A DNA stretch of 64,000 bases from Mycobacteriales bacterium (GTDB lineage Bacteria; Actinomycetota; Actinomycetes; JAFAQI01): NCBI GenBank assembly GCA_035695245.1, contig DASSEQ010000265.1:2296-66295 (forward strand), written 5' to 3'. The position numbers were made by a program, and so were the translations under genes. How positions within the stretch are numbered: the first letter of the stretch is position 1; every line of letters begins with the position of its first letter. Positions 6,856 through 54,049 of this stretch are shown here, piece after piece. Under the pieces are notes generated by a model. It was not told where the DNA came from, made no database searches, and saw only the letters and a program-made list of their open reading frames with translations.

Positions 6856-9800
6856 ACCGCGCGGTCGAGTTGCTCCGACGGTCCCGCCCGCTCACCATCG
6901 GCGGCGCGATCGTGGTGGCGCTCCTCGTCGCGATGCTCGCCTCGCCCGGCCGGGTCCCGTTCGGCATCGCCCTGCAAGGCGCGTTGTACGGCACGACGAC
7001 CGGCCTCCTCGGGATCGGTCTCGTTCTGACCTACCGTTCGGACCGGATCGTCAACTTCTCGTACGGCGCAATGGGCGGCGTCGGCGCGTCCGTGGGCGTG
7101 CTGCTCTATCTGGGCAAGCACTGGAACTACCTGATCTGCATCTTCATCGGACTCGCGGTCGGCGGTCTCGTCGGGGCCGGCACCGAGATGTTCGTCATCC
7201 GCCGCTTTGCTCGTGCGCCGCGGCTGATCCTGACCGTCGCGACAATCGGTTTGGCGCAGGTGCTGGGCGGCATCCAGTTGCTGCTGCCGAAGTGGTTGTC
7301 CGCACCCGCGCTTGTCGGTGGCTTCAAGACGCCGCTCTCCGGACCACATCTCAACGTCGGCCCGGTGCTCTTCACCGGCGACGCGCTGCTTGTCGTCGCC
7401 GTCGTGCCGGTCGCGATCCTGTTGCTGGCCTACTTCCTGCTGCGCACCGATGCCGGCGTTGCCATCCGCGCGATCGCGGACAACCGCGACCGCGCAATGC
7501 TCGTCGGCGTCCCGATCCGACGACTGGCCACTGTCGTATGGATCGTGGCCGGGGTGCTCGCGGCGCTCACCACCTTGCTGTCCGCCCCGACGGCCGGCCT
7601 CACCATCAACGCGGCCGCCGGACCGACCCTGCTGCTTCCCGCGCTTGCCGCGGCCGTCATTGCCGGCATGGAGTCGCTCCCCATCGCGTTCGTCGCCGGC
7701 ACCGGCCTCGGCGTCCTCGATGCGGTTGTCCGCTGGAACTTCACCAAGCAGTCCGTGTCGACCGTCGCCTTCCTGATCGTCATCCTGTTGGCACTGCTCG
7801 GCCAGCGCGAGTCCGGTCGCCGCGAGAATGCCGAGGACTCCTCGCTGTCAACGGCAGCGGCCGCGGTCACCCAGATCCCCAGCGCGCTGCGCCGCTTGCC
7901 CGAGGTGGTCGCCGGCCGCGTGATCGGCCTCACCCTTCTGGGGATTCTCGTCATCGCCGTTCCCGCCGCCGCCAGCGAGAGCACGGTGCGCATCTTCAGC
8001 GTCGGCGTCATCTACGCGATCGTCGCGGTCTCCCTGGTCGTGCTGTCAGGTTGGGCCGGGGAGATCAGCCTCGGGCAATACGCACTCGTCGGCATCGGCG
8101 GCGTTGTCGCCGGCAACATGATCACGCACTGGAACGTCGACTTCTTCGTCTGCCTCGTCTGCGCCGCGACGGCGGGAGCCGTCCTCGCCGTACTCGTCGG
8201 GCTTCCTGCTCTCCGGATTCGTGGGTTGTTCCTGGCCGTCACGACTCTCGCCCTCGCCGTGGCCGCAGACGCCTTCTTCTTCAACCCGACCAACTTCGCG
8301 TCCTTGATCCCGTCGTCGATCGACCGGCCGATCTTGTGGAAGCGCTTCGACCTGACCAACGAGCGGGCGCTCTACTACCTGTGCCTCGCCATGCTCGTCT
8401 TGACCATCGTCGTCGTTCGCGGACTTCGCCAGGCTCGTGCCGGTCGCGTCATGCTCGCAACCCGGGACAACCCTCGGGCTGCTGCAGCGATGGCGGTGCC
8501 GACGACGCGCATCAAACTGCTCTGTTTCGTCATCTCCGGGGCGATCGCCGGCATGGCCGGCGGCTTGCACGCACTCATTCTTCAGTCGATCGGATTCGGC
8601 ACCTACCAACCGTCCGAAAGCCTGCTGGTGTTCTCGATGGTTGTCATCGGGGGACTCGGGTCGATCGGGGGCGCCCTGCTCGGCGTGCTCGCCATCGAAT
8701 GCGCTGTGCACCTGTTCCCGCAGTACCAGCTGGTCATCACCGGCACCGGTCTGCTGTTGGTCCTGCTCCTGTTGCCGGGTGGCCTCGCATCGGCGCTCAC
8801 TGCCCTGCGCGACCGGCTACTGACGCTGGTCGCGCGGCGCCACGGCATCGACCTGACGCCGACCGCGGCAGGAGCGACCGACGTCGACGCGGCCGTCGAG
8901 CCCGTATCGGTCGAGCACCTTGCAGACAGCGACACGCTGTTCCACTGCCGAGGGGTGGAGGTGAAGTACGGCGCAATGCAGGTGCTGTTCGGTGCGGACC
9001 TGGAGGTCCGAGAGGGCGAGATCGTGGCCTTGCTGGGCACCAACGGCGCCGGCAAGTCGACTCTTCTCAAGGCTATCGCGGGCCTCGTCCCGCCGTCGGG
9101 CGGGCGCGTCGTCTTCGCCGGTCAGGACGTGACGTCGGCTTCAACCCAGAGGAAGGCGACCACGGGCCTGGCCATGATGCCGGCAAAGTCGGTCTTCCCG
9201 TCGTTGACGGTGGACGAAAACCTGCGGATCGCGGCCTGGCTGGTGCGTGGCGACGCCGCCGCGGCCGAAGCAGCACGCGACGAAGTGCGCGACTTGTTCC
9301 CGGTCCTGCGCGAGCGACGCGGCCAGGTGGCCGGGAACCTTTCCGGTGGCGAGCAGCAGATGCTCTCGCTCGCGATGGCACTCATGACCAGGCCCCGACT
9401 GCTGCTGATCGACGAGCTGTCGCTTGGGCTGGCGCCGACGATCGTCGGACGCCTGCTCGGCGTCGTGCGCCAGCTGGTCGAACGCGGCGTGACCGTCGTC
9501 ATCGTCGAGCAATCGGTCAACGTTGCCCTCGAGCTCGCCGAGCGCGCCGTCTTCCTGGAGAAGGGGCAGGTGCGGTTCAGCGGCCGCACCGCTGATCTGC
9601 TCGCCCGGCCCGACGTCCTGCGCTCAGTGTTCATCGCGGGAGCGGCGACGGTCGAGCAGCCGAAGAAGCCGGCCCGCGGCCGCGGCCGCGCTCGCACGGC
9701 GCCAGCGCAACGCACCGCGCTCGAGATCGCGCAGACCGAACCGCAGCCGATCGTCCTCGAGTGCCAGTCGGTCGTGAAGGACTTCGGCGGCGTTCGCGCC

Positions 9801-10550
9801 CTCGATCATGTCGACCTCGCTCTGCACAAGCACGAGATCCTCGGTCTCATCGGTCACAACGGCGCCGGGAAGACGACGCTGTTCGACGTCATCTGCGGGT
9901 TTCTGCCGAGCGACCGCGGACGGGTGTTGTTCGGCGGCGCACCGATGGATGCCTTCCCGCCGTCAGATCGCGCCTTCCTCGGGCTCGGCCGTTCGTTCCA
10001 GGAAGCACGGCTCTACCCCTCGTTGACGGTCGAAGAGACGATCGCCGTCGCCTTCGAGCGACACCTGTTCTCACGCGACGTCGTCGCTGCCGGTCTTCGG
10101 CTGCCTGCCTCGACGCTGTCCGAGATGGCCGTCGCACAACGAGTCGGCGAGCTCATCGAGCAGCTCGGACTCGGCCGCTACGCCGAGTCGCTCGTCGGCC
10201 AGCTCTCCACCGGCACGCGACGGATCGTCGAGCTCGGGTGTGTCCTCGCCCAGGATCCCGCGGTGCTGCTTCTCGACGAGCCGACGGGAGGCGTCGCGCA
10301 GAAGGAGACCGAAGCGCTGGGCCCGCTGCTGCGTCAGGTGCGGGAGGAGACCGGCTGCGCCATGCTCGTCATCGAGCACGACATGCCGCTGCTGACGTCA
10401 CTGTGCGACCGACTGGTCGCCCTCGAGCTCGGTCAGGTCATCGCCGAAGGGGCACCGGCGGCTGTGCTCGAACACCCGCGGGTGATCGAGTCCTACCTCG
10501 GCACCGACGCAGCGGCAACCAACAGGTCCGGGGCGCTCGCGAACACCTAG
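6852..10550 (+). CDS. fused branched-chain-amino-acid-type ABC importer: permease(LivH-like)-permease(LivM-like)-ATPase(LivF-like)-ATPase(LivG-like)
   Basis: A single 1232-aa ORF. Two polytopic permease domains are followed by two ABC ATPase domains, with Walker A GTNGAGKST and GHNGAGKTT and signatures LSGGEQQML and LSTGTRRIV. Confidence 0.85.
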   Translation: MNRAVELLRRSRPLTIGGAIVVALLVAMLASPGRVPFGIALQGALYGTTTGLLGIGLVLTYRSDRIVNFSYGAMGGVGASVGVLLYLGKHWNYLICIFIGLAVGGLVGAGTEMFVIRRFARAPRLILTVATIGLAQVLGGIQLLLPKWLSAPALVGGFKTPLSGPHLNVGPVLFTGDALLVVAVVPVAILLLAYFLLRTDAGVAIRAIADNRDRAMLVGVPIRRLATVVWIVAGVLAALTTLLSAPTAGLTINAAAGPTLLLPALAAAVIAGMESLPIAFVAGTGLGVLDAVVRWNFTKQSVSTVAFLIVILLALLGQRESGRRENAEDSSLSTAAAAVTQIPSALRRLPEVVAGRVIGLTLLGILVIAVPAAASESTVRIFSVGVIYAIVAVSLVVLSGWAGEISLGQYALVGIGGVVAGNMITHWNVDFFVCLVCAATAGAVLAVLVGLPALRIRGLFLAVTTLALAVAADAFFFNPTNFASLIPSSIDRPILWKRFDLTNERALYYLCLAMLVLTIVVVRGLRQARAGRVMLATRDNPRAAAAMAVPTTRIKLLCFVISGAIAGMAGGLHALILQSIGFGTYQPSESLLVFSMVVIGGLGSIGGALLGVLAIECAVHLFPQYQLVITGTGLLLVLLLLPGGLASALTALRDRLLTLVARRHGIDLTPTAAGATDVDAAVEPVSVEHLADSDTLFHCRGVEVKYGAMQVLFGADLEVREGEIVALLGTNGAGKSTLLKAIAGLVPPSGGRVVFAGQDVTSASTQRKATTGLAMMPAKSVFPSLTVDENLRIAAWLVRGDAAAAEAARDEVRDLFPVLRERRGQVAGNLSGGEQQMLSLAMALMTRPRLLLIDELSLGLAPTIVGRLLGVVRQLVERGVTVVIVEQSVNVALELAERAVFLEKGQVRFSGRTADLLARPDVLRSVFIAGAATVEQPKKPARGRGRARTAPAQRTALEIAQTEPQPIVLECQSVVKDFGGVRALDHVDLALHKHEILGLIGHNGAGKTTLFDVICGFLPSDRGRVLFGGAPMDAFPPSDRAFLGLGRSFQEARLYPSLTVEETIAVAFERHLFSRDVVAAGLRLPASTLSEMAVAQRVGELIEQLGLGRYAESLVGQLSTGTRRIVELGCVLAQDPAVLLLDEPTGGVAQKETEALGPLLRQVREETGCAMLVIEHDMPLLTSLCDRLVALELGQVIAEGAPAAVLEHPRVIESYLGTDAAATNRSGALANT

Positions 10551-24974: not shown

Positions 24975-26090
24975 GTGACTGATGCCCTCGGTGATCGGCT
25001 GCAACGGGCACAAACGGCAACCGCTCAGGCGGGCATCGACGCCCTTCTGATCACGCCCAGCGCCGATCTGCGCTATCTGGTCGGATATGACGCGAAGCCG
25101 CTGGAGCGGCTGACCTGTCTCGTCGTGCCGGCGCAGGGAGAGCCGGTGCTGGTCGTGCCCCGCCTCGAGCTTGCCGCCGCGGAGGCCGCTGATGCTCCGG
25201 CGGTGGTGAAGGTCGTCACCCACGAAGAAACCGACGATGCATTCGCGTTGGTCGCCGGCCTGGTGCAGGATGCGCTCGGCGCCGATCCGGCCAAGGTGGG
25301 CTTGGCCGATCGCATGTGGGCCGAGCAGGTGTTGCGCTTTCGAGGACTCTGGCCGCACGCCCACCAAGTGACCGCTGGTGGCGTGCTTCGTCCGCTGCGG
25401 TTGCGCAAGCAACCGGATGAGATCGCCGGCTTGCGGGCTGCGGGCGCGGCGATCGACGCGGTGCACTCCCGCATGGGGGAGTGGCTTCGCCTCGGTCGGA
25501 CCGAGCGCGAGGTCGGCCGCGACATCAACGACGCCATCATCGCCGCCGGGCACTCGACGGTGAACTTCATCATCGTGGGTTCGGGGCCCAACGCCGCGAG
25601 CCCGCATCACAGTGTCTCCGACCGTGTCATCACCGCCGGCGACGTTGTCGTTGTCGACATCGGCGGCACGATGCCCGATGGCTACTGTTCCGACTGCACG
25701 CGCACCTATGTCGTCGGCGCCGGCGTCGACGGCGCCTTCGTCGACTACTACGACGTTTTGCTCGCGGCGCAGAAAGCGGCCTGCGACGCCGTGCGCCCAG
25801 GCATCACCGCCGAAAGCGTCGACGCCGCCGCTCGCGACGTGATCGCGGCTGCCGGCTACGGCGACAACTTCATCCATCGCACCGGTCACGGGATCGGGCT
25901 GGAAGAACACGAAGAACCGTGGATCGTCGCGGGCAACGGCGTCGTCCTCGAACCAGGAATGTGCTTCTCGATCGAGCCCGGCATCTACTTCGGGGGCCAG
26001 CACGGCGCCCGGATCGAGGACATCGTCGCGGTCACCGATGACGGGTGCGAACGATTGGACACGATCACGCGCGATCTCGTGACGTTGTGA
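24975..26090 (+). CDS. pepQ: Xaa-Pro dipeptidase / M24-family aminopeptidase
   Basis: Creatinase N-terminus plus an M24 domain with metal ligands (DIGG ... HRTGHGIGLEEHE ... EPG). Confidence 0.85.
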   Translation: MTDALGDRLQRAQTATAQAGIDALLITPSADLRYLVGYDAKPLERLTCLVVPAQGEPVLVVPRLELAAAEAADAPAVVKVVTHEETDDAFALVAGLVQDALGADPAKVGLADRMWAEQVLRFRGLWPHAHQVTAGGVLRPLRLRKQPDEIAGLRAAGAAIDAVHSRMGEWLRLGRTEREVGRDINDAIIAAGHSTVNFIIVGSGPNAASPHHSVSDRVITAGDVVVVDIGGTMPDGYCSDCTRTYVVGAGVDGAFVDYYDVLLAAQKAACDAVRPGITAESVDAAARDVIAAAGYGDNFIHRTGHGIGLEEHEEPWIVAGNGVVLEPGMCFSIEPGIYFGGQHGARIEDIVAVTDDGCERLDTITRDLVTL

Positions 26091-27232
26091 TGCCGGTCGA
26101 CCGCGAGCTGCCGACCGATGAGGCGCGAGAGCTGCTTGCCCTTGCACGACAGCTGGCGGTCGAGGAGCTAGCTCCCCGCGCCGCCGAGTTCGAAGAACGC
26201 GAGGAGTGTCCGCGCGATCTGTTCCGCACCCTGGGACGGGCCGGACTGCTCGGACTCGCGTACGACGAGGAGCTCGGCGGCGGCGGCCAGCCCTACGAGG
26301 TCTACCTGCAGGTGCTCGAGGAACTCGCGATCGGCTGGGCCGCGGTCGCGTTGGGCGTCAGCGTGCACTCGCTGTCGTGCTTTCCGGTGGCGGCTTACGG
26401 CGACGCAGAGCAGAAGAAGCGTTGGCTCGGGGACATGCTCGGCGGCGAGCTACTCGGTGCCTACTGCCTTTCCGAAGCCGGCTCCGGGTCAGATGCCGGC
26501 TCGCTCCAGGCACGCGCGCATCTGGACGGCGACGGCTACATCCTCAACGGCACGAAAGCCTGGGTCACGCATGGCGGTGTCGCCGACTACTACAACGTGT
26601 TCTGCCGCACTTCCGACGACGATCGCCGTGGCATCTCCTTGCTGCTGCTCGATGCCGACACGCCTGGGCTCAACCCGCAGCCTCCGGAGAAGAAGATGGG
26701 TCTCCGCTCCTCGCCGACGGCGCAGGTCGTGCTCGACAGCGCCCGTGTCGGCATCGACCGGTTGATCGGCCGCGAAGGTGACGGCCTCCGCATCGCACTG
26801 TCCGCACTCGACGGCGGGCGGCTCGGCATCAGCGCAGTCGCGACCGGCGTCGCGCAGGCCGCACTCGACGCCGCCACTGCGTATGCCAAAGAGCGACGGC
26901 AGTTCGGGCAGCGCATCGTCGACTTTCAAGGCGTCGCGTTCATGCTCGCGGACATGGCCACCGGCGTGGAAGCCGCACGCGCGCTGTATCTCAGCGCCGC
27001 CCGCCGTCGAGACGCCGGGAAGCCCTACGGCCCACAGGCCTCGATGGCAAAGCTCTTTGCCACCGACAACGCCATGCGCGTCACCACCGACGGGGTGCAG
27101 GTGCTCGGGGGATACGGCTACACCACGGACTTCCCGCTGGAGAGATACATGCGCGAGGTAAAGGTGATGCAAATCTTCGAGGGGACCAACCAGATCCAAC
27201 GAATGGTCATCGGCCGCGCACTGTCGCGCTAA
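26090..27232 (+). CDS. acyl-CoA dehydrogenase
   Basis: ACAD motifs (YCLSEAGSGSDAGSL, GGYGYTTDFPLERYMR). The start ATG overlaps the pepQ stop (TGATG). Confidence 0.85.
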   Translation: MPVDRELPTDEARELLALARQLAVEELAPRAAEFEEREECPRDLFRTLGRAGLLGLAYDEELGGGGQPYEVYLQVLEELAIGWAAVALGVSVHSLSCFPVAAYGDAEQKKRWLGDMLGGELLGAYCLSEAGSGSDAGSLQARAHLDGDGYILNGTKAWVTHGGVADYYNVFCRTSDDDRRGISLLLLDADTPGLNPQPPEKKMGLRSSPTAQVVLDSARVGIDRLIGREGDGLRIALSALDGGRLGISAVATGVAQAALDAATAYAKERRQFGQRIVDFQGVAFMLADMATGVEAARALYLSAARRRDAGKPYGPQASMAKLFATDNAMRVTTDGVQVLGGYGYTTDFPLERYMREVKVMQIFEGTNQIQRMVIGRALSR

Positions 27233-29991: not shown

Positions 29992-30245
29992 CGCGGCTGA
30001 CCTCGGCACTGAATCACCCCTTCCGCCCACTCAAGCCGGTCGCGAAGCCGGCCGAAGCCAACAGTGTCTCCGGCACCCGCTGGGGACGCAGGGCACGGTG
30101 ATCCGAGCGACCCTCACCGACCCGACGCGGTAGCGCCCGCGGCGGGCACGGAGACAACACGGTCGCCTAGGTTGCTCGGGGAGTGAGTGGCGAGACCGGC
30201 CTGGCCTTTCAGGGGTGAAAGCCCCGAGGGACGGGAGAGCACTCC

Positions 30246-30482
30246 ATGCGCACGGTCCTGGGCAGGACGGCGGGGCGCGCCTCGCTCATTCTCGTCGCTA
30301 CGGGGATGGTGGGCAGCGCGGCGCTCCTCGCCGTACCCGCTGCTGCGGGGGCGGCGACACATGTTGCCAAGACGCACAGCACGGTTGGCCCGGCCGGGTC
30401 CTCCCACAAGGGGACCCAGATCGGGACGGCAGTGAAGTTTGTTCGCGAGCCGGACGGCACGGTGCGTCAAGTCCGTGGATGA
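30246..30482 (+). CDS. small secreted protein (78 aa), unknown function
   Basis: RBS GGGAGAG; a signal peptide with AAGAATHVA cleavage-like site. Confidence 0.45.
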   Translation: MRTVLGRTAGRASLILVATGMVGSAALLAVPAAAGAATHVAKTHSTVGPAGSSHKGTQIGTAVKFVREPDGTVRQVRG

Positions 30483-30524
30483 TCAGCGAGTGGGCGTCGA
30501 GCCATTGGGCCGGCGCCCACTGCC

Positions 30525-30989
30525 ATGTCGCTGGATAGGGTCGCGGCCGTGGAGGACCTCGACCGGCAGATCCTGCGACTGCTGACGCAAGACGGGCGGC
30601 GCAGTTTCACCGATCTCGCGAAGGAGACCGGCCTGTCCGTCTCAGCCGTCCACCAGCGGGTCAGGCGACTCGAGAAGCGCGGCACTCTCCGCGGCTACTA
30701 CGCCGTGATCGACCCCGACACGGTCGACCTGCCGCTCACCGCATTCGTCTCGATAAAGCCGATCGACCCGGCCGCTCCGGACGACGCCCCGGACCGGCTG
30801 TCACATCTGAGCGCCATCGAGGCCTGCCACAGCGTCGCCGGCGACGAGAGCTACATCCTCAAGGTCCGAGTGGCGTCTCCAGCCGCGTTGGAGGCACTGC
30901 TGCAGGAGATCCGGGCCGCCGCCAACGTGTCGACACGGACCACCGTCGTGCTGTCCACACCGTTCGAGGGTCGACCGCCGGCGATCTGA
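30525..30989 (+). CDS. Lrp/AsnC-family transcriptional regulator
   Basis: HTH (LDRQILRLLTQDGRRSFTDLAKETGLSVSAVHQRVRRLE) plus a RAM/AsnC_trans domain. Confidence 0.9.
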   Translation: MSLDRVAAVEDLDRQILRLLTQDGRRSFTDLAKETGLSVSAVHQRVRRLEKRGTLRGYYAVIDPDTVDLPLTAFVSIKPIDPAAPDDAPDRLSHLSAIEACHSVAGDESYILKVRVASPAALEALLQEIRAAANVSTRTTVVLSTPFEGRPPAI

Positions 30990-31112
30990 GCCCGCCCCGC
31001 CGTCACTCTCCGTGCCAACACGGTGTGTCAGATTGCCGTCACACCGACATTTCGGGCATCGTGTGCGCCGCCAGGGGGGCCAGACCACGAACGCCACAGA
31101 GGAATCCTTTAC

Positions 31113-31853
31113 GTGCGCCTGCCATCACGCCCGCCTGCCCGTTTCGCCCTCCCCGCCACTATCAGCCTCGTCGTAGCCCTCCTCGCCGCTCTGCTGCCGT
31201 CGACCGCATCCGCGGACACGACGACCGAAGGCCAGTTCGTCAGCGACACCAACCAGGCGCGCGCCCAAGACGGGCTCCACGCCTATGCCGTGCGGAGCGA
31301 CCTCACCACGGTCGCGCGCCGCTGGGCGGCGTACATGGCACAACACCAGACGCTGGCCCACAACCCCAACTACCAGAACCAGGTCTGCTGCTGGACCGAG
31401 ATCGGAGAGAACGTCGGCGAGGGCTCGTCGGTGGGACAGATCCAGCGCGCCTTCATGGCGTCAGCACCGCATCGCGACAACATCCTGTCCCGCGACTTCA
31501 CCCAGGTCGGCATCGGCACCGCCCACGACTCGGCCGGTCGTCTGTACGTCGATGAGCTCTTCCGCCGCCCGTCTGGCAGCCAGGCTGCCCAGGCTCCGGT
31601 TGCCCCAGTGAGTGCGCCCGCACCGTCGGTTCCGGTGCAGGTTGCGGTTCATCGCGCCAGCCGGAGCGCACACCGCGCCGGGCTGGCGCCGCGTCGGCAT
31701 CCGGCGGCGCCGCCGAGCGCGACAACACTGCTCAGCGAGCGCCTCGCTACCGCGACCCAGGAGTCGGCGCGTCAACCGAGAGCGGACCCTGTCATGGGCG
31801 CCTGGACGTTCGTGCAGGTGATGGCGGAGCTTTCCGGATCACCCGGCCACTGA
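31113..31853 (+). CDS. secreted CAP-domain (SCP/PR-1-like) protein
   Basis: GTG start after RBS AGAGGA; a signal peptide; CAP motifs (HYTQVVW-like FTQVGIG, NPNYQN). Confidence 0.7.
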   Translation: MRLPSRPPARFALPATISLVVALLAALLPSTASADTTTEGQFVSDTNQARAQDGLHAYAVRSDLTTVARRWAAYMAQHQTLAHNPNYQNQVCCWTEIGENVGEGSSVGQIQRAFMASAPHRDNILSRDFTQVGIGTAHDSAGRLYVDELFRRPSGSQAAQAPVAPVSAPAPSVPVQVAVHRASRSAHRAGLAPRRHPAAPPSATTLLSERLATATQESARQPRADPVMGAWTFVQVMAELSGSPGH

Positions 31854-33197
31854 CTTCAGGCGCGCAGCCTGGCGGCGCCACCAGTTCTGGCCCTCCGCCG
31901 GCAACGTGTCGATCGGGTCGTAGTAGTCGTAGCGCCGTGCGAGCGCGGCCGGATCGTCCCGTTCGACGCTGGTTCGGTAGTTCTTCGTCCACGACGAGAT
32001 CCCGCGCACCCGGTCATAGGCATCGACCTGGTGCACCCAGCGCTTCCCGACGTAGGGAACGTCACAGACGATCCGCGGCGTGGCGAAGCCGGGAAGGTAG
32101 CCCATGATCGCGTGCTGAAGGTCCTGCGCCTGCGCGATCGAGGTCCGCCAGTGCTCGCTGCCCGGGATCATGTCGCACGTGTAGAAGTAGTAGGGGAGGA
32201 TCTTCGCCTCGTCCTGGAGCGCGAAGCACAGGTCGAGCAGATCGCGCTGTGATGCGTTCACCCCTCGCAGCAGGACGCCCTGGTTGCGCACATCACGGAT
32301 GCCGGTGTCGAGCATCGCCCGCACCGCCCGCGCGACCGTCGGGGTGAGTGACTGCGCGGCGTTGACGTGGGTGTGGATGGCCAGGTCGACGCCGCGGCGG
32401 CGCGCCTCGGTGGCCAGGCGTTCCATGCCGGCCCGCACCTCGTCAGCGTGCCAGTGCTGCGGAAGGCCCATGAGCGCCTTGGTGGCGAGCCGGATGTCGC
32501 GAATGTTGTCGATCTCCAGCAGGCGGGCCACGAACGCCTCGAGCCGCGGCCAGGGCATGTTCGCAACGTCTCCGCCGGACACGACGACATCACGCACCGC
32601 TGGCGTGGCCCGCAGATAGGCGATCATGGCGTCGAGCCGGTCGACCGGCTTCAGCTCGAACCGGTGCTTGCCGACCTGCGGCGTCGAGTTGCCCACCAGG
32701 TCCATCCGGGTGCAGTGGCCGCAGTACTGCGGACAGGTTGCGAGCAGCTCGGCCAGGACCTTCGTCGGATAGCGGTGGGTGAGGCCCTCGACAGCCCACA
32801 TCTCTGCTTCGTGCAACGAGTCGCGGCTGGCGCGCGGGTGGCTCGGCCACGTCGGGTGCCGGTCGGACAGCGCCGGAAGCATGTAGCGGCGGACCGGATC
32901 GGCGTACATCGCCTCGGTGCTGGGAACGGCGGTCGGCACCATCGTGTTGAGCATCTGAGGAGGCAGCAGCAGCGACATCGTGGCGCGCTCGGCTTGGTCA
33001 CGCGCGACGTCGTCGTAAAACGCTGCATCGAGAAGGTCTCCGAAGACAGCGAAGAGCTGCGCGACGGTCTTGACGCAGTGCGCACGTTGCCACTGCGCCG
33101 ACTGCCAGTCGGCCTCGCCGACATCGCGCCACCCCGGCAGCCGCCGCCAGTCGGGCTCGACCAGCTCGCGGCGCCGGTAGACGTAAGGCTGGTCCAT
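31839..33197 (-). CDS. kamA: lysine 2,3-aminomutase (radical SAM, KamA family)
   Basis: CPQYCGHCTR cluster (CxxxCxxC) and the overall KamA architecture. Start chosen at MDQPYVYRR. Confidence 0.85.
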   Translation of the reverse strand: MDQPYVYRRRELVEPDWRRLPGWRDVGEADWQSAQWQRAHCVKTVAQLFAVFGDLLDAAFYDDVARDQAERATMSLLLPPQMLNTMVPTAVPSTEAMYADPVRRYMLPALSDRHPTWPSHPRASRDSLHEAEMWAVEGLTHRYPTKVLAELLATCPQYCGHCTRMDLVGNSTPQVGKHRFELKPVDRLDAMIAYLRATPAVRDVVVSGGDVANMPWPRLEAFVARLLEIDNIRDIRLATKALMGLPQHWHADEVRAGMERLATEARRRGVDLAIHTHVNAAQSLTPTVARAVRAMLDTGIRDVRNQGVLLRGVNASQRDLLDLCFALQDEAKILPYYFYTCDMIPGSEHWRTSIAQAQDLQHAIMGYLPGFATPRIVCDVPYVGKRWVHQVDAYDRVRGISSWTKNYRTSVERDDPAALARRYDYYDPIDTLPAEGQNWWRRQAARLKSVAG

Positions 33198-33264
33198 GTC
33201 GGCTCCGTGCGTCAGACTTGTCTCGAGGGACACGATACGGAGAAGATTCGGCAGGGACAATGAT

Positions 33265-33285
33265 TGACAGGAGGATTTCCTGTCA
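33265..33285. promoter_or_regulatory. perfect inverted repeat TGACAGGA-N5-TCCTGTCA in the kamA/kdd divergent promoter
   Basis: Overlaps a TTGACA -35-like hexamer (33264-33269); candidate operator. Confidence 0.5.
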
Positions 33286-33341
33286 CAATGTCATGTGCCG
33301 GTGAGAATTCGATTGGCTGGACGTCAAACAGGGAGTCGCTG

Positions 33342-34388
33342 ATGAGCCGGGGCCCGGGGTCGCCCGTCGGGTTGCATCGGGTGCTCGAGCCGCGGGGCGT
33401 GCTACCGCAGGCGGCCTGGCGGCTGGACGCGTCCCCCGAGATCTACGACGACGAGGTCCGCCTCTCGGTCGAACGCCTCAACCTCGATGCCGCGTCCTTC
33501 CGCCAGCTGCACGAGTCACTCGACGGTGACGGACAGCGCGTTCGGGCCGAAGTCCTCCAGATCGTCCGGGACCGGGGCAAGATGCACAACCCGGTGACCA
33601 ACTCCGGCGGCATGCTCGTGGGCACAGTGGCCGAGGTCGGCGCCGGCTCACCGCTCGGCCTGCACGTCGGCCAGCGGGTGGCCACGCTCGTATCACTCAC
33701 GTTGACCCCCTTGGTGATCACCGACGGCCTGGCCGACTGGACCGGGGGGAGCGAACAGGTGCCCGCGGCCGGCCACGCCATCCTGTTCGGCCGGTCGGTG
33801 GCGGCGGCCATTCCCGACGACATGCCGGTGTCGCTCGCGTTGGCGGTCCTCGACGTCTGTGGGTCGCCGGCGCTCACCCAGCGCGTCGTCCGGGGCTACC
33901 GCGCACCGCGGGTGCTCGTCCTCGGTGCCGGTGGCAAGAGCGGGGCGTTGGCGCTCGCGGCGGCCCGACGGTCCGGCGCAGGCGAGCTGGTCGGGCTCGT
34001 GCCGGACGAGAGTGAGGCCGCCGCGGTCGCTGCGGCCGGCCTCGCGGACGAGGTCGTCGTTGCCGACGCCCGAGATCCGGTGGCGTGCGCCGCAGCCGTG
34101 GGCGCGCCGGCGGATGTGACGGTGGTCTGTGTCGACGTCCCCGGCTGCGAGGGAGCGGCGATCCTCGCCACCGCGTCCGGCGGCACGATCGTGTTCTTCT
34201 CGATGGCGACCTCGTTTGCCGCGGCCGCACTCGGCGCCGAAGGTGTCGCCGCCGACGTCACGATGCTCGTCGGCAACGGCTACAGCCCCGGCCACAGCCA
34301 GCTGGCGCTCCAACTGGTCCGTGAAGAGCCAGGAGTGCGCGCGCTGCTCGATCGACGTCTCGATCTCGACGTGACGGTTGTGCCATGA
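33342..34388 (+). CDS. kdd: L-erythro-3,5-diaminohexanoate dehydrogenase-like (Kdd)
   Basis: RBS AGGGAG; a 349-aa Rossmann-type dehydrogenase; operon position between kamA and kamDE, as in lysine-fermentation clusters. Confidence 0.6.
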   Translation: MSRGPGSPVGLHRVLEPRGVLPQAAWRLDASPEIYDDEVRLSVERLNLDAASFRQLHESLDGDGQRVRAEVLQIVRDRGKMHNPVTNSGGMLVGTVAEVGAGSPLGLHVGQRVATLVSLTLTPLVITDGLADWTGGSEQVPAAGHAILFGRSVAAAIPDDMPVSLALAVLDVCGSPALTQRVVRGYRAPRVLVLGAGGKSGALALAAARRSGAGELVGLVPDESEAAAVAAAGLADEVVVADARDPVACAAAVGAPADVTVVCVDVPGCEGAAILATASGGTIVFFSMATSFAAAALGAEGVAADVTMLVGNGYSPGHSQLALQLVREEPGVRALLDRRLDLDVTVVP

Positions 34389-35953
34389 GTCCGCCCACGC
34401 GGCGACTCGAGCTCGATCCCCGCACCGTCGCCAGGGCTCGGCGCCTGGCCGCACGGGCGGCGGCACCGGTGATCGCGCTGGCGCGCACGTCGACGACCAC
34501 ATCGGTCGAGCGTGCTGTGTTGCGACTTGCCGGGCTGGCCGGGGCCGACGCCGAGGGCATCCCGTGGGTCAACCGCCTCGTCGACGCCGTCCGGGCCGAT
34601 GTCGGACTGGAGCACGGCGTGGCGTTGCCGGTGTGGCACGCACTGGCCGTGTCCGAGCATGACGACCTCAGCACGCTCGCCCAGAAAGCGGCAGCGGGTG
34701 GAGTGCGGTTCACCCTGCCGAGCGGCACGTACGAGCGAAGCGCCAAGACCGCGGCACGGCGCGACGTCGCGCGGGGGATCGCGACGATCGACCGCAACCG
34801 TCGCAGCCGGCAACGCCTGCTCGCCCGGCTCGGGGATCCACCCAAACCGTGGATCTACCTCATCGTTGCGACCGGCGACATCTACGAAGACATCCCCCAG
34901 GCACAGGCCGCTGCGCGCGGCGGCGCCGACATCATCGCGGTGATCCGCTCGACCGGGCAGTCCCTCCTCGACTACGTGCCTGAGGGAGCGACCCGCGACG
35001 GGTTCGCCGGCACCTATGCCACGCAGGAGAACTTCCGGCTGATGCGCACCGCCCTGGACGAGGTGTCCCGGGAGGTGGGCCGCTACGTCCGGCTGACCAA
35101 CTACGCGTCCGGGCTGTGCATGCCCGAGATCGCGACGCTCGCCGGGCTGGAACGCCTGGACATGATGCTCAACGACTGCATGTACGGGATCATCTTCCGC
35201 GACATCAACCCGCAACGGACTTTTATCGATCAGCGGTTTAGTCGACAAATCCATTCTCGTGCGGGCATCATCATCAACACCGGCGAGGACAACTACCTGA
35301 CCACGGCCGACGCGGTGGATGCCGCCCACACCGTGATCGTGAGCCAGCTCCTCAACGAGCGGTTCGGTCTCGAGGCCGGGCTGGAGGACTGGCAGCTCGG
35401 GCTCGGGCACGCCTTCGAGATCAACCCGGAGGTGCCGGAGCAATTCCGGCTGGAGCTCGCGCACGCGCAGCTCGTCCGCGAGCTGTTCCCGAACGCACCA
35501 CTGAAGTACATGCCGCCCACCAAGCACATGACCGGCGATGTCTTCTTCGGCTACCTGCTGGACGCGTTCTTCAACCTCGCTGGGGTGATGACCGAGCAAT
35601 CGATCCTCCTCGTCGGGATGATGACCGAAGGGATCGTCACGCCGTTCCTCTCCGACCGCGACTTGGCCCTCGAGAACGTTCGCTACGTCCGCAGCGCATG
35701 CGCCGGGCTCGCCGAAGACTTCCGCCCGGCCCCGGACGGCTTCATCGCCCGGCGAGCAGAACAGGTCCTGGCCGAGGCGGTCGACCTCCTCGAGCGCATC
35801 TGCGACGAGTCGCTCTTCGCGGCGATCGCCAAGGGCACCTTCGGAGTGACCAAGCGCCCACCGGATACAGGCAAGGGTCTGGACGGCGTCGTCACTCAGG
35901 CGCCGGGCTACTACAACCCCGCGTCGGTGTTGCTGGAAGGGCGGGACGCATGA
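34385..35953 (+). CDS. kamD: lysine 5,6-aminomutase alpha subunit (KamD)
   Basis: About 520-aa TIM-barrel subunit, translationally coupled (ATGA) to kamE. Confidence 0.8.
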   Translation: MSPPTRRLELDPRTVARARRLAARAAAPVIALARTSTTTSVERAVLRLAGLAGADAEGIPWVNRLVDAVRADVGLEHGVALPVWHALAVSEHDDLSTLAQKAAAGGVRFTLPSGTYERSAKTAARRDVARGIATIDRNRRSRQRLLARLGDPPKPWIYLIVATGDIYEDIPQAQAAARGGADIIAVIRSTGQSLLDYVPEGATRDGFAGTYATQENFRLMRTALDEVSREVGRYVRLTNYASGLCMPEIATLAGLERLDMMLNDCMYGIIFRDINPQRTFIDQRFSRQIHSRAGIIINTGEDNYLTTADAVDAAHTVIVSQLLNERFGLEAGLEDWQLGLGHAFEINPEVPEQFRLELAHAQLVRELFPNAPLKYMPPTKHMTGDVFFGYLLDAFFNLAGVMTEQSILLVGMMTEGIVTPFLSDRDLALENVRYVRSACAGLAEDFRPAPDGFIARRAEQVLAEAVDLLERICDESLFAAIAKGTFGVTKRPPDTGKGLDGVVTQAPGYYNPASVLLEGRDA

Positions 35954-36711
35954 GCACGATCAACGTGGTCCGGGCATACGGCGACACGACCGGCGACGGC
36001 ATGGTGCAGATCTCCTTCACCCTGCCGATGCCGGCCGGGCCGAAGGCCGAGGCGGCCGCCGCTGCCTTCGCGGCCAAGATGGGTCTGGACCCCGCGCTCG
36101 TCGTCCACGCGAAGGGGATCGGCCCGGACTTCACGTTCTTCGTCGTCTACGGCCGGTCAAGCGTGGTCGTCGACTTGGACGAGATCGTCGTCGCCGAGCG
36201 CGAATACCCCCTTCTCACCACGAAAGAGATCAACCTCGAGGTGAAGTCGAGGCTGAAGCGCCGGCTAGTCGTGGTTGGCGGCACCGTGGGGACAGACGCG
36301 CACACCGTCGGCCTGGACGCGATCTTGAACGTCAAGGGCTTCGCGGGGGAGAAGGGGCTCGAGCACTACCGCGAGCTCCGGGTGGTCAACCTGGGCGCGC
36401 AGCTCGACGCCGTCGAACTCGTCGACCGGGCGCTCCGCGAGCGGGCCGATGCGATCCTGGTGAGCCAGGTGGTCACTCAGCGCGATGCGCATGTCCAGCA
36501 CGTGCAGGAGGTGGTCACGGCGCTGCGGGACCGGTGGCCCTCGGACAGTGGCCGCCATCCGATGCGGCCGTTGCTCGTCGTCGGCGGGCCGAGGTTCGAC
36601 CCCGGTGCAGCCGCTGACCTCGGCGTCGACCGGGTCTTCACCCGCGGGACCACCCCGCGCGAGGTCGCGTCCTACCTGGTGCACGCCCTCAGCCGTCGGC
36701 GGGCAGCATGA
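35950..36711 (+). CDS. kamE: lysine 5,6-aminomutase beta subunit (KamE, B12/PLP-binding)
   Basis: MSTINVVRAYGDTTGDGMVQISFTLP..., Rossmann-like cobalamin-binding domain (VVVGGTVGTDAHTVGLDAI). Confidence 0.8.
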   Translation: MSTINVVRAYGDTTGDGMVQISFTLPMPAGPKAEAAAAAFAAKMGLDPALVVHAKGIGPDFTFFVVYGRSSVVVDLDEIVVAEREYPLLTTKEINLEVKSRLKRRLVVVGGTVGTDAHTVGLDAILNVKGFAGEKGLEHYRELRVVNLGAQLDAVELVDRALRERADAILVSQVVTQRDAHVQHVQEVVTALRDRWPSDSGRHPMRPLLVVGGPRFDPGAAADLGVDRVFTRGTTPREVASYLVHALSRRRAA

Positions 36712-37103
36712 CGGCAACCGTGGGGGAGCAGGTGGTGCACCGCCGCTACGTGCCCTTCAGCCACGCGCACTACGGCGGCAGCCTCGTCGACGGCGCCTAC
36801 GTCCTCGGGCTGTTCGGCGACGCCGCGACCGAGCTCTGCATCCGCACCGATGGCGACGAGGGCTTGTTTGCCTCGTACGATGACGTGCAGTTCCGGGCAC
36901 CGGTGCGAGCCGGCGACGTGCTCGAGGTCAGTGCCACCATCGACCGGGTCGGCACCCGCAGCCGGGGAGTGCGCTTCGAGGCCCGGGTGGTCGCACGGGC
37001 CGAGCCGGATCGGGGCCCATCTGCGGCCAAAGTGTGCGATCCGCCGCTGGTCGTCGTCAGCGCCCACGGCACCGTCGTCGTACCGACTAGTACGTTCGGA
37101 TGA
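36708..37103 (+). CDS. kal: 3-aminobutyryl-CoA ammonia-lyase-like hotdog-fold protein (Kal)
   Basis: 131-aa hotdog fold, HAHYGGSLVDGAYVLGLFGD. Last gene of the kdd-kamDE operon. Confidence 0.6.
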   Translation: MTATVGEQVVHRRYVPFSHAHYGGSLVDGAYVLGLFGDAATELCIRTDGDEGLFASYDDVQFRAPVRAGDVLEVSATIDRVGTRSRGVRFEARVVARAEPDRGPSAAKVCDPPLVVVSAHGTVVVPTSTFG

Positions 37104-37119
37104 TTGTTCAAACTTGCCA

Positions 37120-37132
37120 TGATCGATGATCA
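37120..37132. promoter_or_regulatory. palindrome TGATCGATGATCA in a low-GC island downstream of kal
   Basis: Perfect 5-bp arms; a TTGACA (37180) ... TAGTTT promoter-like pair follows. Confidence 0.3.
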
Positions 37133-37546
37133 GTGGCGCGACCTGCACTTTTGCGCGTTTCCGCAGGTCAGGCGGGTGTTGACAGCACACACGGCTTAAC
37201 CGTTAGTTTGCCGAACGTCCACCGCAGGGACGCTCGACGTACGAAGGCGCCACACCGTGTCCCGGCTGGCCAGGATCGGCGAGACGAGCACCCGTCGCGC
37301 CGAGCGGGTGCCAGGTCCAGCCGGAGCGGGAGTCGGCGAGCCGCTCGTATGACAGCGGGGTGCGACCACCTGGGAGGGGCCCGGGTGCCCAGTAGACAAC
37401 GGCGGTGCGTCGGCAGCCGGTCGACGTAGTGTCGGTCCGAAGGTGCGCCCGGGCCCGAATCCAGTTCTTCCGCGCGGTGATCCCGCGCGCCGCCGGCGGC
37501 GGTTTCTGAACTATCGCCTTACCGGCGCCGTTGCTAGCCTCGCCAG

Positions 37547-39184
37547 GTGATGCGCCTCGCGGGGCGGCCGCACGCCCGGCCGGTGACGCGAGCCGCGCTC
37601 GCCGCCGCGACCGGGGTCACAGTCTGGGCCTCGTTCCCGCCACTGTCGTGGTGGTGGACGGCCCCGCTCGGAGTCGCCGGACTGGCGCTCCTGACCTGCT
37701 CGTCGCCGCGCCTACGCGGCGGTGTGGGCCTCGGCTACTTGCACGGGCTCGGCTACCTGGTCCCGATGATGAGCTTCCTGCGCGGCATCGGCGTCGACGC
37801 CTGGCTCGTGGTCGCGCTGATCGAGGCCGTGTGGTTCGCGGTGCTCGGAGCGGCTTTGGCCCTGGCCGGCCGCCGGCGGTGGTGGCCGCTGGCGCTTCCG
37901 GTGATCTGGCTTGCCGTCGAGTGGGCCCGCGACCGGTGGCCCTTCGGCGGGTTCCCCTGGGCCCGGCTCGCATTCGGCCAGGACAGCGGCCCGTTGCTGC
38001 CGCTCGCGGCCTGGGGAGGCGCGCCATTGGTGGCGTTTGCGGTGCTTGCCCTGGCGGCGGTGCTCGCCTGGGCAGCGCTGCGAACAGCCGCGGCCACCCC
38101 CTCGGCTCGGCGCCTGGTGCTGGCCGGTAGCGCCGGGTCGGTCGCGGTGGTCTGCGCGGCCACCCTCGGGCTGGCGGCGGCCGTGCCGGTGCCGACCGGC
38201 GGCACCTCGGCCCACGGCGCGCCGTCGCACACGGTCGTGGCCGCGGTGCAGGGCGACGTGCCCCGGCTCGGGCTCGACGCGTTCACCCAGAAGCGGGTCG
38301 TCACGCAGAACCACGTCACGGAGACCGAGAAGCTGGCCGCAGCCGTCCAAGCCGGCCAGGTGCCGCGACCGGCCTTCGTCGTCTGGCCGGAGAACGCGTC
38401 CGACCAGGACCCGTTCTCCGACCCGGTCGCCCGCACGATGATCGACACCGCCGTCGCCACGATCGGGGTGCCCGTGCTCGTCGGAGCGGTCATCAACGGC
38501 CCCGACTCGCGGCACGTGCAGAACACCGCGATCGTCTGGTCGCCGGCAACCGGGCCGGGGGAGATCTACGTCAAGCGGCATCTGGTGCCGTTCGGGGAGT
38601 ACTTGCCGTTCCGTGGCCTGCTCACCTCGATCGCCGGGCGGTTCTCCATGATCGCCAAGGACTTCTCACCCGGCCACCGCCCCGGGGTGCTGACCCTGGC
38701 CGGTGTTCGGATCGGCGACGTCATCTGCTTCGAGGTGGCCGACGACCAGGTGGTCCGCGACACCATCACCGGCGGCGGCCGGCTCCTCGTCGTACAGACC
38801 AACAACGCCACCTACGAGCGGCCCGGCGACAACGGCTACGGCGGCGAGACGGCCCAGCAGCTGGCCATGTCGCGGCTGCGCGCCGTCGAGCACGGCCGGG
38901 CCGTCGTCGTCGCCGCCACCAGCGGGGTGAGCGCCGTGATCAGTCCGGATGGGCGCGTGCTGCAGCGATCCGGCGTGTTCAAGCCGGCGCTGCTCGTGGC
39001 GGACGTGCCGCTACGGGATCCGATGACGGTCGCCGACCGCCTGGGTGCCTGGCCGGAACGGATCGCGGCACTTCTCGGCGCACTCGCGGTGGTTGCCGGT
39101 GCCGCCGGACTCTGGCGGCGACCCGACCCTGCGCCGCCGACACAGCCGGTCCCGGAGCGGGACCTGTTGGCGGGTCGCGCATGA
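37547..39184 (+). CDS. lnt: apolipoprotein N-acyltransferase
   Basis: N-terminal polytopic membrane domain plus a C-terminal nitrilase/CN-hydrolase domain (VWPENASD ... ICFEV). Followed by ppm1, as in mycobacteria. Confidence 0.9.
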
Positions 39185-45469: not shown

Positions 45470-45675
45470 GTCGCGTTGCTGCGTCAGCCGCAGCCGCTTA
45501 CGGGCTCCCCTTCTGTTGTCGGCCGGGCGGTGGCATCGCGAGGAATCGCGCCGGACATGCTTGCCCCGACTTCAGAGTGCCCTGCCCGAGCGGTCCGTTG
45601 GCCTGAGAGGTTCCGGGGACGTTGCTCCTTCGGCGCCCCGGACTGGCGGTCCGGGAGCTCTCCCGCACGGGATCA
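45470..45675 (-). ncRNA. glycine riboswitch (one clear aptamer, possible degenerate second) in the gcvP leader
   Basis: On the minus strand, about 45672-45585 reads GGGAGAG...CGCCGAAGGAGCAA...CCTCTCAGGCCAACGGACCG. These match the conserved glycine-aptamer blocks GGAGAG / CGCCGAAGGAGCAA / CUCUCAGGCAAAAGGACAG. Confidence 0.6.
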
Positions 45676-53352: not shown

Positions 53353-53955
53353 CTATGCCGGTCTGCCGGCGGCGAGCAACCGGCGCACCTGCACGCCGTA
53401 CAGGGTCCCGGCCCAGAAATAGAGTGCGGCGCCCCAGGCGGCAAAAGCCCATCCGATCGCGCGTGCCGCCGGGCCCAGCCCGCCGCCCTCGTTGGCGAGC
53501 AGCAAGATCGGAAACGCGTAGAGCAGGCACATGGTGGCGGCCTTGCCGATGAAGTTGACCGGCAGAGCAAGTCCGTAGCCGAGCCGGCGCAGGATCGGCA
53601 GAACGGTCACCCCGAGGATCAGGTCGCGCCCCGGCAGTGCGATCGCGAGCCACACCGGGATGACGCCGCGGATGGTGAGCGCGATGAGCGTCGCCAGGAT
53701 GTACAGCCGGTCCGCCGCGGGGTCGAGCATCGCGCCGAGCCGGCTCGATTGGTTGAACCGGCGCGCGATCTTGCCGTCGGCGTAGTCGCTGAGGCCGGCG
53801 AAGGCAAGGACGACAACCGCCCACGCGTCGGCATGCGGGCCCAGCACCAACCACAAGAACAGAGGCACACCCAGCAGCCGCAGCACGCTCAGCAGGTTGG
53901 GCACCGTCCAGACGCGGTCTGCGGCGGTGTCGCTGCGTTCGCTGGGTGCCGTCAT
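53353..53955 (-). CDS. pgsA: CDP-alcohol phosphatidyltransferase (PgsA-like)
   Basis: Motif DYADGKIARR...G...D...D. The start is set at internal Met27, because the ORF N-terminus overlaps the tRNA. Confidence 0.8.
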   Translation of the reverse strand: MTAPSERSDTAADRVWTVPNLLSVLRLLGVPLFLWLVLGPHADAWAVVVLAFAGLSDYADGKIARRFNQSSRLGAMLDPAADRLYILATLIALTIRGVIPVWLAIALPGRDLILGVTVLPILRRLGYGLALPVNFIGKAATMCLLYAFPILLLANEGGGLGPAARAIGWAFAAWGAALYFWAGTLYGVQVRRLLAAGRPA

Positions 53956-53975
53956 GGTCCTCCGGTGCGAAGACG

Positions 53976-54049
53976 TCGGGCTGACAGGATTTGAACCTGC
54001 GACCCCCACACCCCCAGTGTGGTGCGCTACCAAGCTGCGCCACAGCCCG
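53976..54049 (-). tRNA. tRNA-Pro (anticodon GGG)
   Basis: The minus strand reads CGGGCTGTGGCGCAGCTTGGTAGCGCACCACACTGGGGGTGTGGGGGTCGCAGGTTCAAATCCTGTCAGCCCGA. The cloverleaf has the anticodon loop CTGGGGG, a T-loop GGTTCAAATCC, and no encoded CCA. Confidence 0.85.

Follow-up and report, generated by a model that had tools for sequence, protein, structure and literature searches.

A widespread actinomycete gene cluster predicted to degrade lysine through beta-lysine

What might an actinomycete do with a set of enzymes that is best known from lysine fermentation by anaerobic bacteria? The question is raised by positions 30525-37103 of a 64-kb stretch of DNA from a Mycobacteriales metagenome-assembled genome; the whole of this stretch is called the window here. 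In this region a gene for a KamA-family aminomutase, of the type that uses radical S-adenosylmethionine (SAM) and pyridoxal phosphate (PLP), is divergent from kdd, kamD, kamE and kal. An earlier note on this DNA had recognized such a cluster in what it took to be a high-GC actinobacterium. We called genes by third-position GC content and family scans, and all of the genes listed in the note were found in their places, with some start codons refined. The host was also correctly recognized, since the 452-amino acid KamA product matches, with 100% identity, an NCBI entry that bears the name 'lysine 2,3-aminomutase [Mycobacteriales bacterium]'.

We propose that the cluster serves the LrpA-controlled catabolism of L-lysine via beta-lysine, 3,5-diaminohexanoate and 5-amino-3-oxohexanoate to 3-aminobutyryl-coenzyme A (CoA) and crotonyl-CoA, with a cleavage step that comes from outside the cluster. 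We hold this to be probable, with moderate confidence. In the predicted direction of flux, the KamA-family enzyme would convert L-lysine to beta-lysine, and KamDE, using B12 and PLP, would shift the 6-amino group to give 3,5-diaminohexanoate. Oxidative deamination at C3 by Kdd would generate 5-amino-3-oxohexanoate. Cleavage of this species to 3-aminobutyryl-CoA and acetoacetate would fall to an enzyme that is not encoded in the cluster, most likely an unlinked Kce of the BKACE family acting with acetyl-CoA. Lastly, Kal would remove ammonia to give crotonyl-CoA, destined for ordinary beta-oxidation-type metabolism and not for butyrate. The chemistry would be the same as that of clostridial lysine fermentation, here vertically inherited in actinomycetes.

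The products of the four genes of the kdd unit were assigned using the NCBIfam equivalog models for the lysine-fermentation enzymes with their curated cut-offs. Each open reading frame (ORF) was profile-searched, and the chromosomes of Fusobacterium vincentii and Acetoanaerobium noterae (PLSDB NZ_CP084075.1 and NZ_CP154629.1; loci L084 and L085 in our numbering) served as anaerobe controls. Kdd scored 255.9 bits with NF052381 (cut-off 200), and matched the solved 3,5-diaminohexanoate dehydrogenase 7DL3 over its full length (residues 6-331, E = 9e-65); it is 41-44% identical to Kdd of the two control loci. KamD scored 710 bits with NF052384 (cut-off 600) and 805 bits with PF09043, the alpha-subunit TIM-barrel domain, and matched the alpha subunit of lysine 5,6-aminomutase in structures 8T0V and 1XRS with E = 5e-165. 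The corresponding values for KamE are 311 bits with NF052385 (cut-off 280) and E = 1e-58 with the beta subunit in 9Q1A and 1XRS. The KamE stretch GTDAHTVGLDAILNVKGFAG, aligned with GTDAHTVGLDAIMNMKGYAG of 9Q1A, retains the DxHxxG motif for cobalamin as well as the PLP lysine. D-ornithine 4,5-aminomutase was rejected as an assignment for KamDE, the OraE models giving only 119 and 102 bits as against 800. Kal scored 188.8 bits with NF052388 (cut-off 160), and its nearest structure is that of the beta-alanyl-CoA:ammonia lyase 4MTU, a beta-aminoacyl-CoA ammonia lyase (E = 1.7e-23). With 52-58% identity to Kal of the control loci, it is conserved more closely with the anaerobes than any of the other four enzymes, which argues that 3-aminobutyryl-CoA remains the intermediate. 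The four proteins had been described earlier as a Kdd-like protein, the two subunits of KamDE and a Kal-like protein; all pass the equivalog cut-offs and match solved structures of the named enzymes.

All three junctions in this unit (kdd/kamD, kamD/kamE and kamE/kal) are 4-bp ATGA overlaps. Thus kdd-kamD-kamE-kal is a translationally coupled operon, divergent from kamA (Table 1).

How common is this arrangement? We scanned for KamD with one genome per species, finding at least 596 relatives, and took neighbourhoods from the best 80. The comparison covered 83 related loci, each with 10-kb flanks around kamD. The 80 closest species genomes are all from Actinomycetota, and include Frankiales, Kribbella, Nocardioides, Actinomadura, Spirillospora, Catellatospora, Terrabacter, Phycicoccus, Lentzea and Trebonia. 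Their KamD sequences reach at most 81% identity to that of the window, and the proteins of related species are 59-81% identical to the window proteins. The five genes are present in identical order and orientation, with kamA divergent from kdd-kamD-kamE-kal, in 65 of the 80 species genomes; 13 of the remaining 15 loci are cut by a contig end. Either lnt or ppm1 is found within 5 kb after kal in 69 of the 74 assessable loci, and rbpA in 63. The order of the flanking housekeeping genes is constant (pafABC-tatAC-helY ... lnt-ppm1-rbpA-gcvP), and the wider window has pafA-pafBC-tatC-helY ... lnt-ppm1-rbpA-gcvP, a neighbourhood typical for actinomycete chromosomes at this position.

The GC content and skew of the cluster are the same as those of its flanks. 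Horizontal transfer was considered and rejected, given this composition and a chromosomal position that is conserved across several actinomycete orders. The cluster is an old, vertically inherited part of the actinomycete core chromosome. It is widespread in actinomycetes, and already automatically annotated by NCBI under these gene names. The occurrence of the lysine pathway in several Actinobacteria has been remarked on before, without experimental support (Vital et al., 2014; PMC3994512). The view of the earlier note, that this is a pathway best known from anaerobes, therefore needs qualification: with at least 596 KamD relatives, and shared synteny in a best 80 drawn entirely from Actinomycetota, it is not unusual in actinomycetes.

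Not all of the related loci are alike. In about half of the related species a metal-dependent hydrolase of ~525 amino acids, of the Amidohydro_3 family, is encoded between kdd and kamD (L023 8430-10013, L006 8421-9974 and about 35 other related loci); the window does not have it. The hydrolase has no specific NCBIfam match, and its closest structures are the uncharacterized hydrolases 3ICJ and 3IGH.

Actinomycetes use beta-amino acids in natural products, and the cluster always lies beside the envelope genes lnt and ppm1. Might beta-lysine, 3,5-diaminohexanoate or 3-aminobutyryl-CoA be made here as building blocks for a secondary metabolite or an envelope component? The flanks are housekeeping genes in a fixed order, so the adjacency reflects chromosome position and not function. 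Moreover, genes for non-ribosomal peptide synthetases, polyketide synthases, ligases or transferases are absent from the cluster and its conserved flanks, and Kdd and Kal are deaminating enzymes. We consider a biosynthetic role to be very improbable, and return to catabolism and to the enzyme that would begin it.

The KamA-like protein is the least typical of the five. It aligns with the lysine 2,3-aminomutase of Clostridium subterminale (2A5H) with E = 1.1e-41 and ~30% identity, and is ~29% identical to canonical KamA where the other four enzymes reach 39-58%. It falls below the KamA cut-offs, with 163 bits for TIGR03820 (cut-off 525) and 154 bits for the family model TIGR00238 (cut-off 199); the KamA of the Fusobacterium control scores 613 and 399 bits with these models. 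We examined residue conservation in an alignment of 63 members of the KamA clade to which the window protein belongs. The radical-SAM CxxxCxxC motif (C125, C129 and C132), CPQYCGHC in the window aligned with CSMYCRHC of 2A5H, is invariant in all 63. So too are R134, SGGD, H230, Y287, Y290, D293, D330 and PYVGK. The lysine of PYVGK lies six residues past D330, compared with seven for K337, the PLP lysine, of 2A5H. In that structure we take R134, D293 and D330 to be the residues that contact lysine, with D293 and D330 holding the epsilon-amino group, and K337 to be the residue that binds PLP.

Thus the window KamA and 2A5H have in common the radical-SAM motif, the stretch SGGD, the lysine for PLP, and R134, D293 and D330. 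It differs by an N-terminal insertion, by its scores below the cut-offs and at the zinc site. The zinc site of lysine 2,3-aminomutase is formed by C268 and three C-terminal cysteines. In the clade S, T or D stands in place of C268 and the Cys-rich C-terminus is absent, 62 of the 63 sequences having no cysteine at all past D330. Glutamate and arginine 2,3-aminomutases were ruled out by the scores of the hidden Markov models (HMMs) and the conserved D293 and D330. We interpret the protein as belonging to a separate subfamily of lysine 2,3-aminomutases that is free of zinc, its activity and the stereochemistry of its product being predictions. The divergent radical-SAM lysine 2,3-aminomutase of the earlier note is therefore upheld in its alignment with 2A5H and its key residues, but the protein is not a canonical orthologue.

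Does the pathway begin with L-lysine? The primary substrate could instead be imported beta-lysine, D-lysine, or an N-acylated form of lysine or beta-lysine such as an osmolyte or peptide fragment, with L-lysine a minor one. The non-canonical nature of the KamA subfamily is consistent with this. As the name D-lysine 5,6-aminomutase of the solved entries matched by KamDE shows, D-lysine is a known substrate in this family. The Amidohydro_3 enzyme that about half of the related species have may open the pathway to further substrates, such as an N-acylated precursor. Yet the window's own cluster has no amidohydrolase, and the 3,5-diamino product for which Kdd is specific comes from beta-lysine and not D-lysine. 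In essentially all species KamA stands in divergent pairing with kdd, and its lysine-binding residues are retained; this points to entry by L-lysine. A different primary substrate is in our judgement improbable. The predicted conversion of L-lysine to beta-lysine by the KamA-like protein is supported only by its conserved divergent pairing with kdd-kamDE-kal.

How might expression of the cluster be controlled? An Lrp/AsnC regulator had been placed just upstream, and a protein with an N-terminal AsnC-type HTH of PF13404 (60.5 bits) and a C-terminal, ligand-binding AsnC_trans_reg (RAM) domain of PF01037 (49.1 bits) is indeed encoded there. The closest solved structures, matched over the full length with E = 1e-46, are those of Mycobacterium tuberculosis Rv3291c LrpA (2VBW, 2IVM and 2QZ8; PMC2175373). 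In M. tuberculosis LrpA adjoins lat, the gene for lysine epsilon-aminotransferase, and binds upstream of it (PMC4726150). There too a feast/famine regulator is found beside a lysine-catabolic gene, although lat belongs to a different lysine pathway and the effector and operator in the window are putative. Of the 53 species loci that could be assessed, 33 have a homologue of the regulator in the 6 kb upstream of kamA.

The region between kamA and kdd has a GC content of 54%, compared with ~69% in the flanks. It contains a perfect palindrome, TGACAGGA-GGATT-TCCTGTCA, the core of which occurs only once in the window when up to 3 mismatches are allowed. Similar sites of the form ACCGgAAGATTTCCgGT are present at the equivalent position in other species. 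A weight matrix was constructed from 11 seed sites, and only iteration 0 was counted, later refinement being circular. The matrix score exceeded the 95th percentile of shuffled sequences in 53 of 67 kamA-kdd intergenic regions of other species; for the regions that had not provided seeds, 42 of 56 passed where ~3 would be expected. The palindrome is a putative operator in the divergent promoter. Both units are probably controlled through it by the LrpA-like protein in response to an amino acid, a pairing of regulator and site that we presume. Scanning 30000-38000 for promoters and terminators gave nothing above chance.

Upstream of the regulator gene there is an element resembling the Rfam c-di-GMP-II-GAG riboswitch, at 30082-30210 (+), with a score of 46.7 bits against a gathering score of 40. 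It is followed by a conserved ORF for 78 amino acids with a signal peptide (30246-30482) and, on the same strand, the Lrp gene and the gene for a CAP-domain protein, the gaps being 43 and 34 bp. The element is found at the same place in L001 (3506-3630), L002 (3437-3564), L004 (3923-4040) and L050 (6596-6721), and in L050 it lies just 147 bp before the Lrp gene. Riboswitch control of the lysine cluster itself was considered and rejected. The Rfam hits comprise only a glycine riboswitch (gcvP), tRNA and the c-di-GMP-II-GAG element, with no lysine or B12 riboswitch.

Table 1. Coordinates of the cluster, its regulator and associated features in the window
Feature	Position	Strand	Remarks
Lrp/AsnC-family regulator, LrpA type	30525-30989	+	Pfam HTH_AsnC-type and AsnC_trans_reg
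CAP-domain protein, probably secreted	31023-31853	+	
KamA-family radical-SAM/PLP aminomutase	31839-33197	-	452 aa from ATG start
Divergent kamA/kdd intergenic region, 144 bp	33198-33341	.	putative operator at 33265-33285
kdd, L-erythro-3,5-diaminohexanoate dehydrogenase	33342-34388	+	NF052381, PDB 7DL3
kamD, alpha subunit of lysine 5,6-aminomutase	34385-35953	+	NF052384, PF09043, PDB 8T0V/1XRS
kamE, beta subunit of lysine 5,6-aminomutase	35950-36711	+	NF052385, PDB 9Q1A/1XRS
kal, encoding 3-aminobutyryl-CoA ammonia-lyase, hotdog fold	36708-37103	+	NF052388, PDB 4MTU

The lysine fermentation cluster of Fusobacterium and of Acetoanaerobium (Clostridium) sticklandii-type anaerobes was reportedly described by Kreimeyer and colleagues in 2007. 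NCBIfam names the whole of the Fusobacterium control cluster as kal-kce-kdd-kamA-kamB-kamC-kamD-kamE. The window has five enzyme families in common with it (KamA-family, KamD, KamE, Kdd and Kal). It differs in the absence of kce, kamB and kamC, in having kamA divergent from kdd-kamD-kamE-kal, in its zinc-free KamA, in its LrpA-type regulator, and in lacking genes for acetoacetate CoA-transferase or Bcd-Etf nearby. The actinomycete cluster is a trimmed five-gene version of that of the anaerobes. Relative to the characterized anaerobe system it is a variant architecture, previously noted and automatically annotated in actinomycetes. The two control sequences, of 2.1 and 2.6 Mb, are filed as plasmids. 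With the chromosomal cluster for lysine fermentation on them, they are likely to be chromosomes under a wrong label.

A rewired lower pathway, with Kat as a 3-aminobutyryl-CoA aminotransferase, has been described in 'Candidatus Cloacamonas acidaminovorans' (Perret et al., 2011; PMC3149608); kamA, kamDE, kdd and kce are retained there. Thus Cloacamonas replaces Kal and keeps Kce, whereas the window keeps Kal and has no linked Kce. The host group of the window is mostly aerobic, so that butyrate is an unlikely end product, unlike in the anaerobes. The butyrate-forming end of the pathway (Bcd-Etf and acetoacetate:butyryl-CoA CoA-transferase) was not found among the window genes scanned with Pfam, a few short, low-scoring calls being outside that scan. 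The window has only a lone acyl-CoA dehydrogenase, at 26045-27232. This gene and that for a flanking M24 peptidase were considered as members of the pathway; both appear to belong to the conserved set of housekeeping neighbours, which is unproven either way. No CoA-transferase, thiolase or crotonase was found in the window, and none is recurrent in the flanks of the related loci.

For Kce we constructed a BKACE profile HMM from three PDB sequences, and applied it to ORFs from all six frames in the window and in the 83 related loci. In both anaerobe controls the same profile recovers kce between kal and kdd at E ~1e-60, and the control Kce scores 465 bits with NF052387 (cut-off 382).

A number of observations weigh against our proposal. 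The earlier note had reported that Kce is absent from the window, and the present searches agree. With the BKACE profile no match in the window or in any of the 83 loci had an E below 0.8, and tblastn with canonical Kce gave zero matches in the same sequences. The KamB and KamC reactivase is likewise missing, tblastn with the Fusobacterium queries giving zero matches in the window and the 83 loci. The sub-threshold scores and lack of a zinc site leave the substrate and product stereochemistry of the KamA-like protein unproven. The regulator adjoins the cluster in only ~60% of species, and may belong to a riboswitch-led unit with two genes for secreted proteins. Lastly, no actinomycete is known to use lysine by this route: we found no experimental study in the literature, only work on gut bacteria and anaerobes and a single sentence on Actinobacteria, that of Vital et al.

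In four related loci a gene of the GlmL family (MutL-type) directly follows kal. It is present in L013 (12713-14068), L043 (12796-14130) and two further loci, which together form one sequence cluster; the L013 member was family-scanned, and the window has no such gene. GlmL is an accessory protein of B12 mutases, and the GlmL-family protein is for this reason a possible substitute for the missing KamB/KamC reactivase.

Could another enzyme take the place of Kce? The recurrent neighbours of the cluster (5'-3' exonuclease, HelY, P450, FxsA, Lgt, GlmL and Amidohydro_3) were considered, and none is an obvious beta-keto-acid cleavage enzyme. We also searched for an actinomycete Kce with the canonical sequence among 1.84 billion representative proteins. 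Kce-like proteins from high-GC sequences score just under the Kce cut-off. On one 75% GC metagenome contig (L086, 2-1469) kamE is directly followed by kce and a cupin gene. On others of 72% GC (L087, 9240-11277, and likewise L088 and L089) kdd-kce-kal is accompanied by genes for a TetR protein and a polar amino-acid ABC transporter, without kamA or kamDE. The enzymes of these four contigs are only ~45% identical to those of the window, and form a separate lineage. In other high-GC contexts BKACE genes are found with hydantoinase or with thiolase. These proteins were rejected as the Kce of the present clade; they come from other lineages and contexts, and none can be linked to it. The four contigs carry homologues of the same pathway enzymes but keep kce in the cluster. 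This makes its absence from loci of the window type more pointed, but it bears on those other lineages and not on the genomes of the present clade.

The absence suggests another possibility. The first three steps might be the same, with 5-amino-3-oxohexanoate not cleaved by a BKACE enzyme at all. It could be activated with CoA and then undergo thiolysis by a general thiolase to give acetyl-CoA and 3-aminobutyryl-CoA. Alternatively, the Kal homologue could deaminate the C6 beta-amino-keto intermediate ahead of C-C cleavage. In line with this, kce is absent near the cluster in the window and 83 loci, yet lies inside it in both anaerobe controls. Its position next to kamE in L086, and between kdd and kal in L087-L089, indicates that clustering is the norm where kce is used, and the flanks contain no recurrent CoA-transferase or BKACE neighbour. 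However, absence from a 20-kb neighbourhood differs from absence from a genome, and a BKACE-like locus reported by NetSyn in Rhodococcus erythropolis indicates that the family occurs in Actinomycetes. Furthermore, Kal is expected to act on the same substrate, given its high similarity to the canonical enzyme and a score above the equivalog cut-off, and the cluster has no conserved gene for a thiolase or CoA ligase. We regard a Kce-independent route as unlikely, although it is the main rival to our proposal.

The broader form of this idea is that actinomycetes run a distinct and probably oxygen-tolerant beta-lysine pathway without BKACE or KamBC. It would have a zinc-free KamA at its entry, another reaction on 5-amino-3-oxohexanoate, such as either of the two just described, and an LrpA-type lysine sensor acting through the palindrome. 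That we think rather doubtful. LrpA-controlled catabolism of L-lysine, with the cleavage enzyme most likely a BKACE-family Kce encoded elsewhere, is the reading that we retain.

Some other features of the window may be recorded. The CAP-domain gene that lies between the regulator gene and kamA was absent from the earlier note, and is unrelated to the cluster. In the 440-bp spacer between kal and lnt (37104-37546) there is an ORF of 98 codons at 37133-37429, and its translation shows 47-60% conservation in L002, L003 and L005, three close relatives. It has no family match, and in L002 no gene was called at that spot; a conserved leader is one possibility and a small gene another. Upstream of gcvP, a glycine riboswitch aptamer was found at 45581-45675 (-) with 68 bits. 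It is the single aptamer above threshold in the window, as against a tandem pair in L002 and L050. A tRNA gene at 53976-54049 (-) overlaps the 5' end of the longest ORF for a CDP-alcohol phosphatidyltransferase (53353-54033), and because of this overlap the true start of the latter must lie further downstream. An ORF for 1232 amino acids at 6852-10550 (+) has two branched-chain amino-acid permease domains fused to two ABC ATPase domains. It adjoins a gene for a periplasmic binding protein (5224-6855), and is an unusually fused LIV-type transporter.

The beta-lysine route is regarded as belonging to fermentation by gut and oral anaerobes, and is taken to mark butyrate producers. Its core genes are nevertheless widespread and vertically inherited in soil actinomycetes, and metagenome surveys that use kamA, kamD, kdd and kal as butyrate markers would wrongly include these organisms. 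If Kce is encoded elsewhere in the genome, the finding is that of a correctly annotated catabolic operon only. The cultured and mostly aerobic hosts, such as Kribbella, Nocardioides and Actinomadura, offer a place in which to test how radical-SAM and B12 aminomutases operate without the known reactivase, and to ask how C-C cleavage proceeds without a linked kce. The cluster is also a source of high-GC variants of Kdd and the aminomutases for beta-amino-acid biocatalysis.

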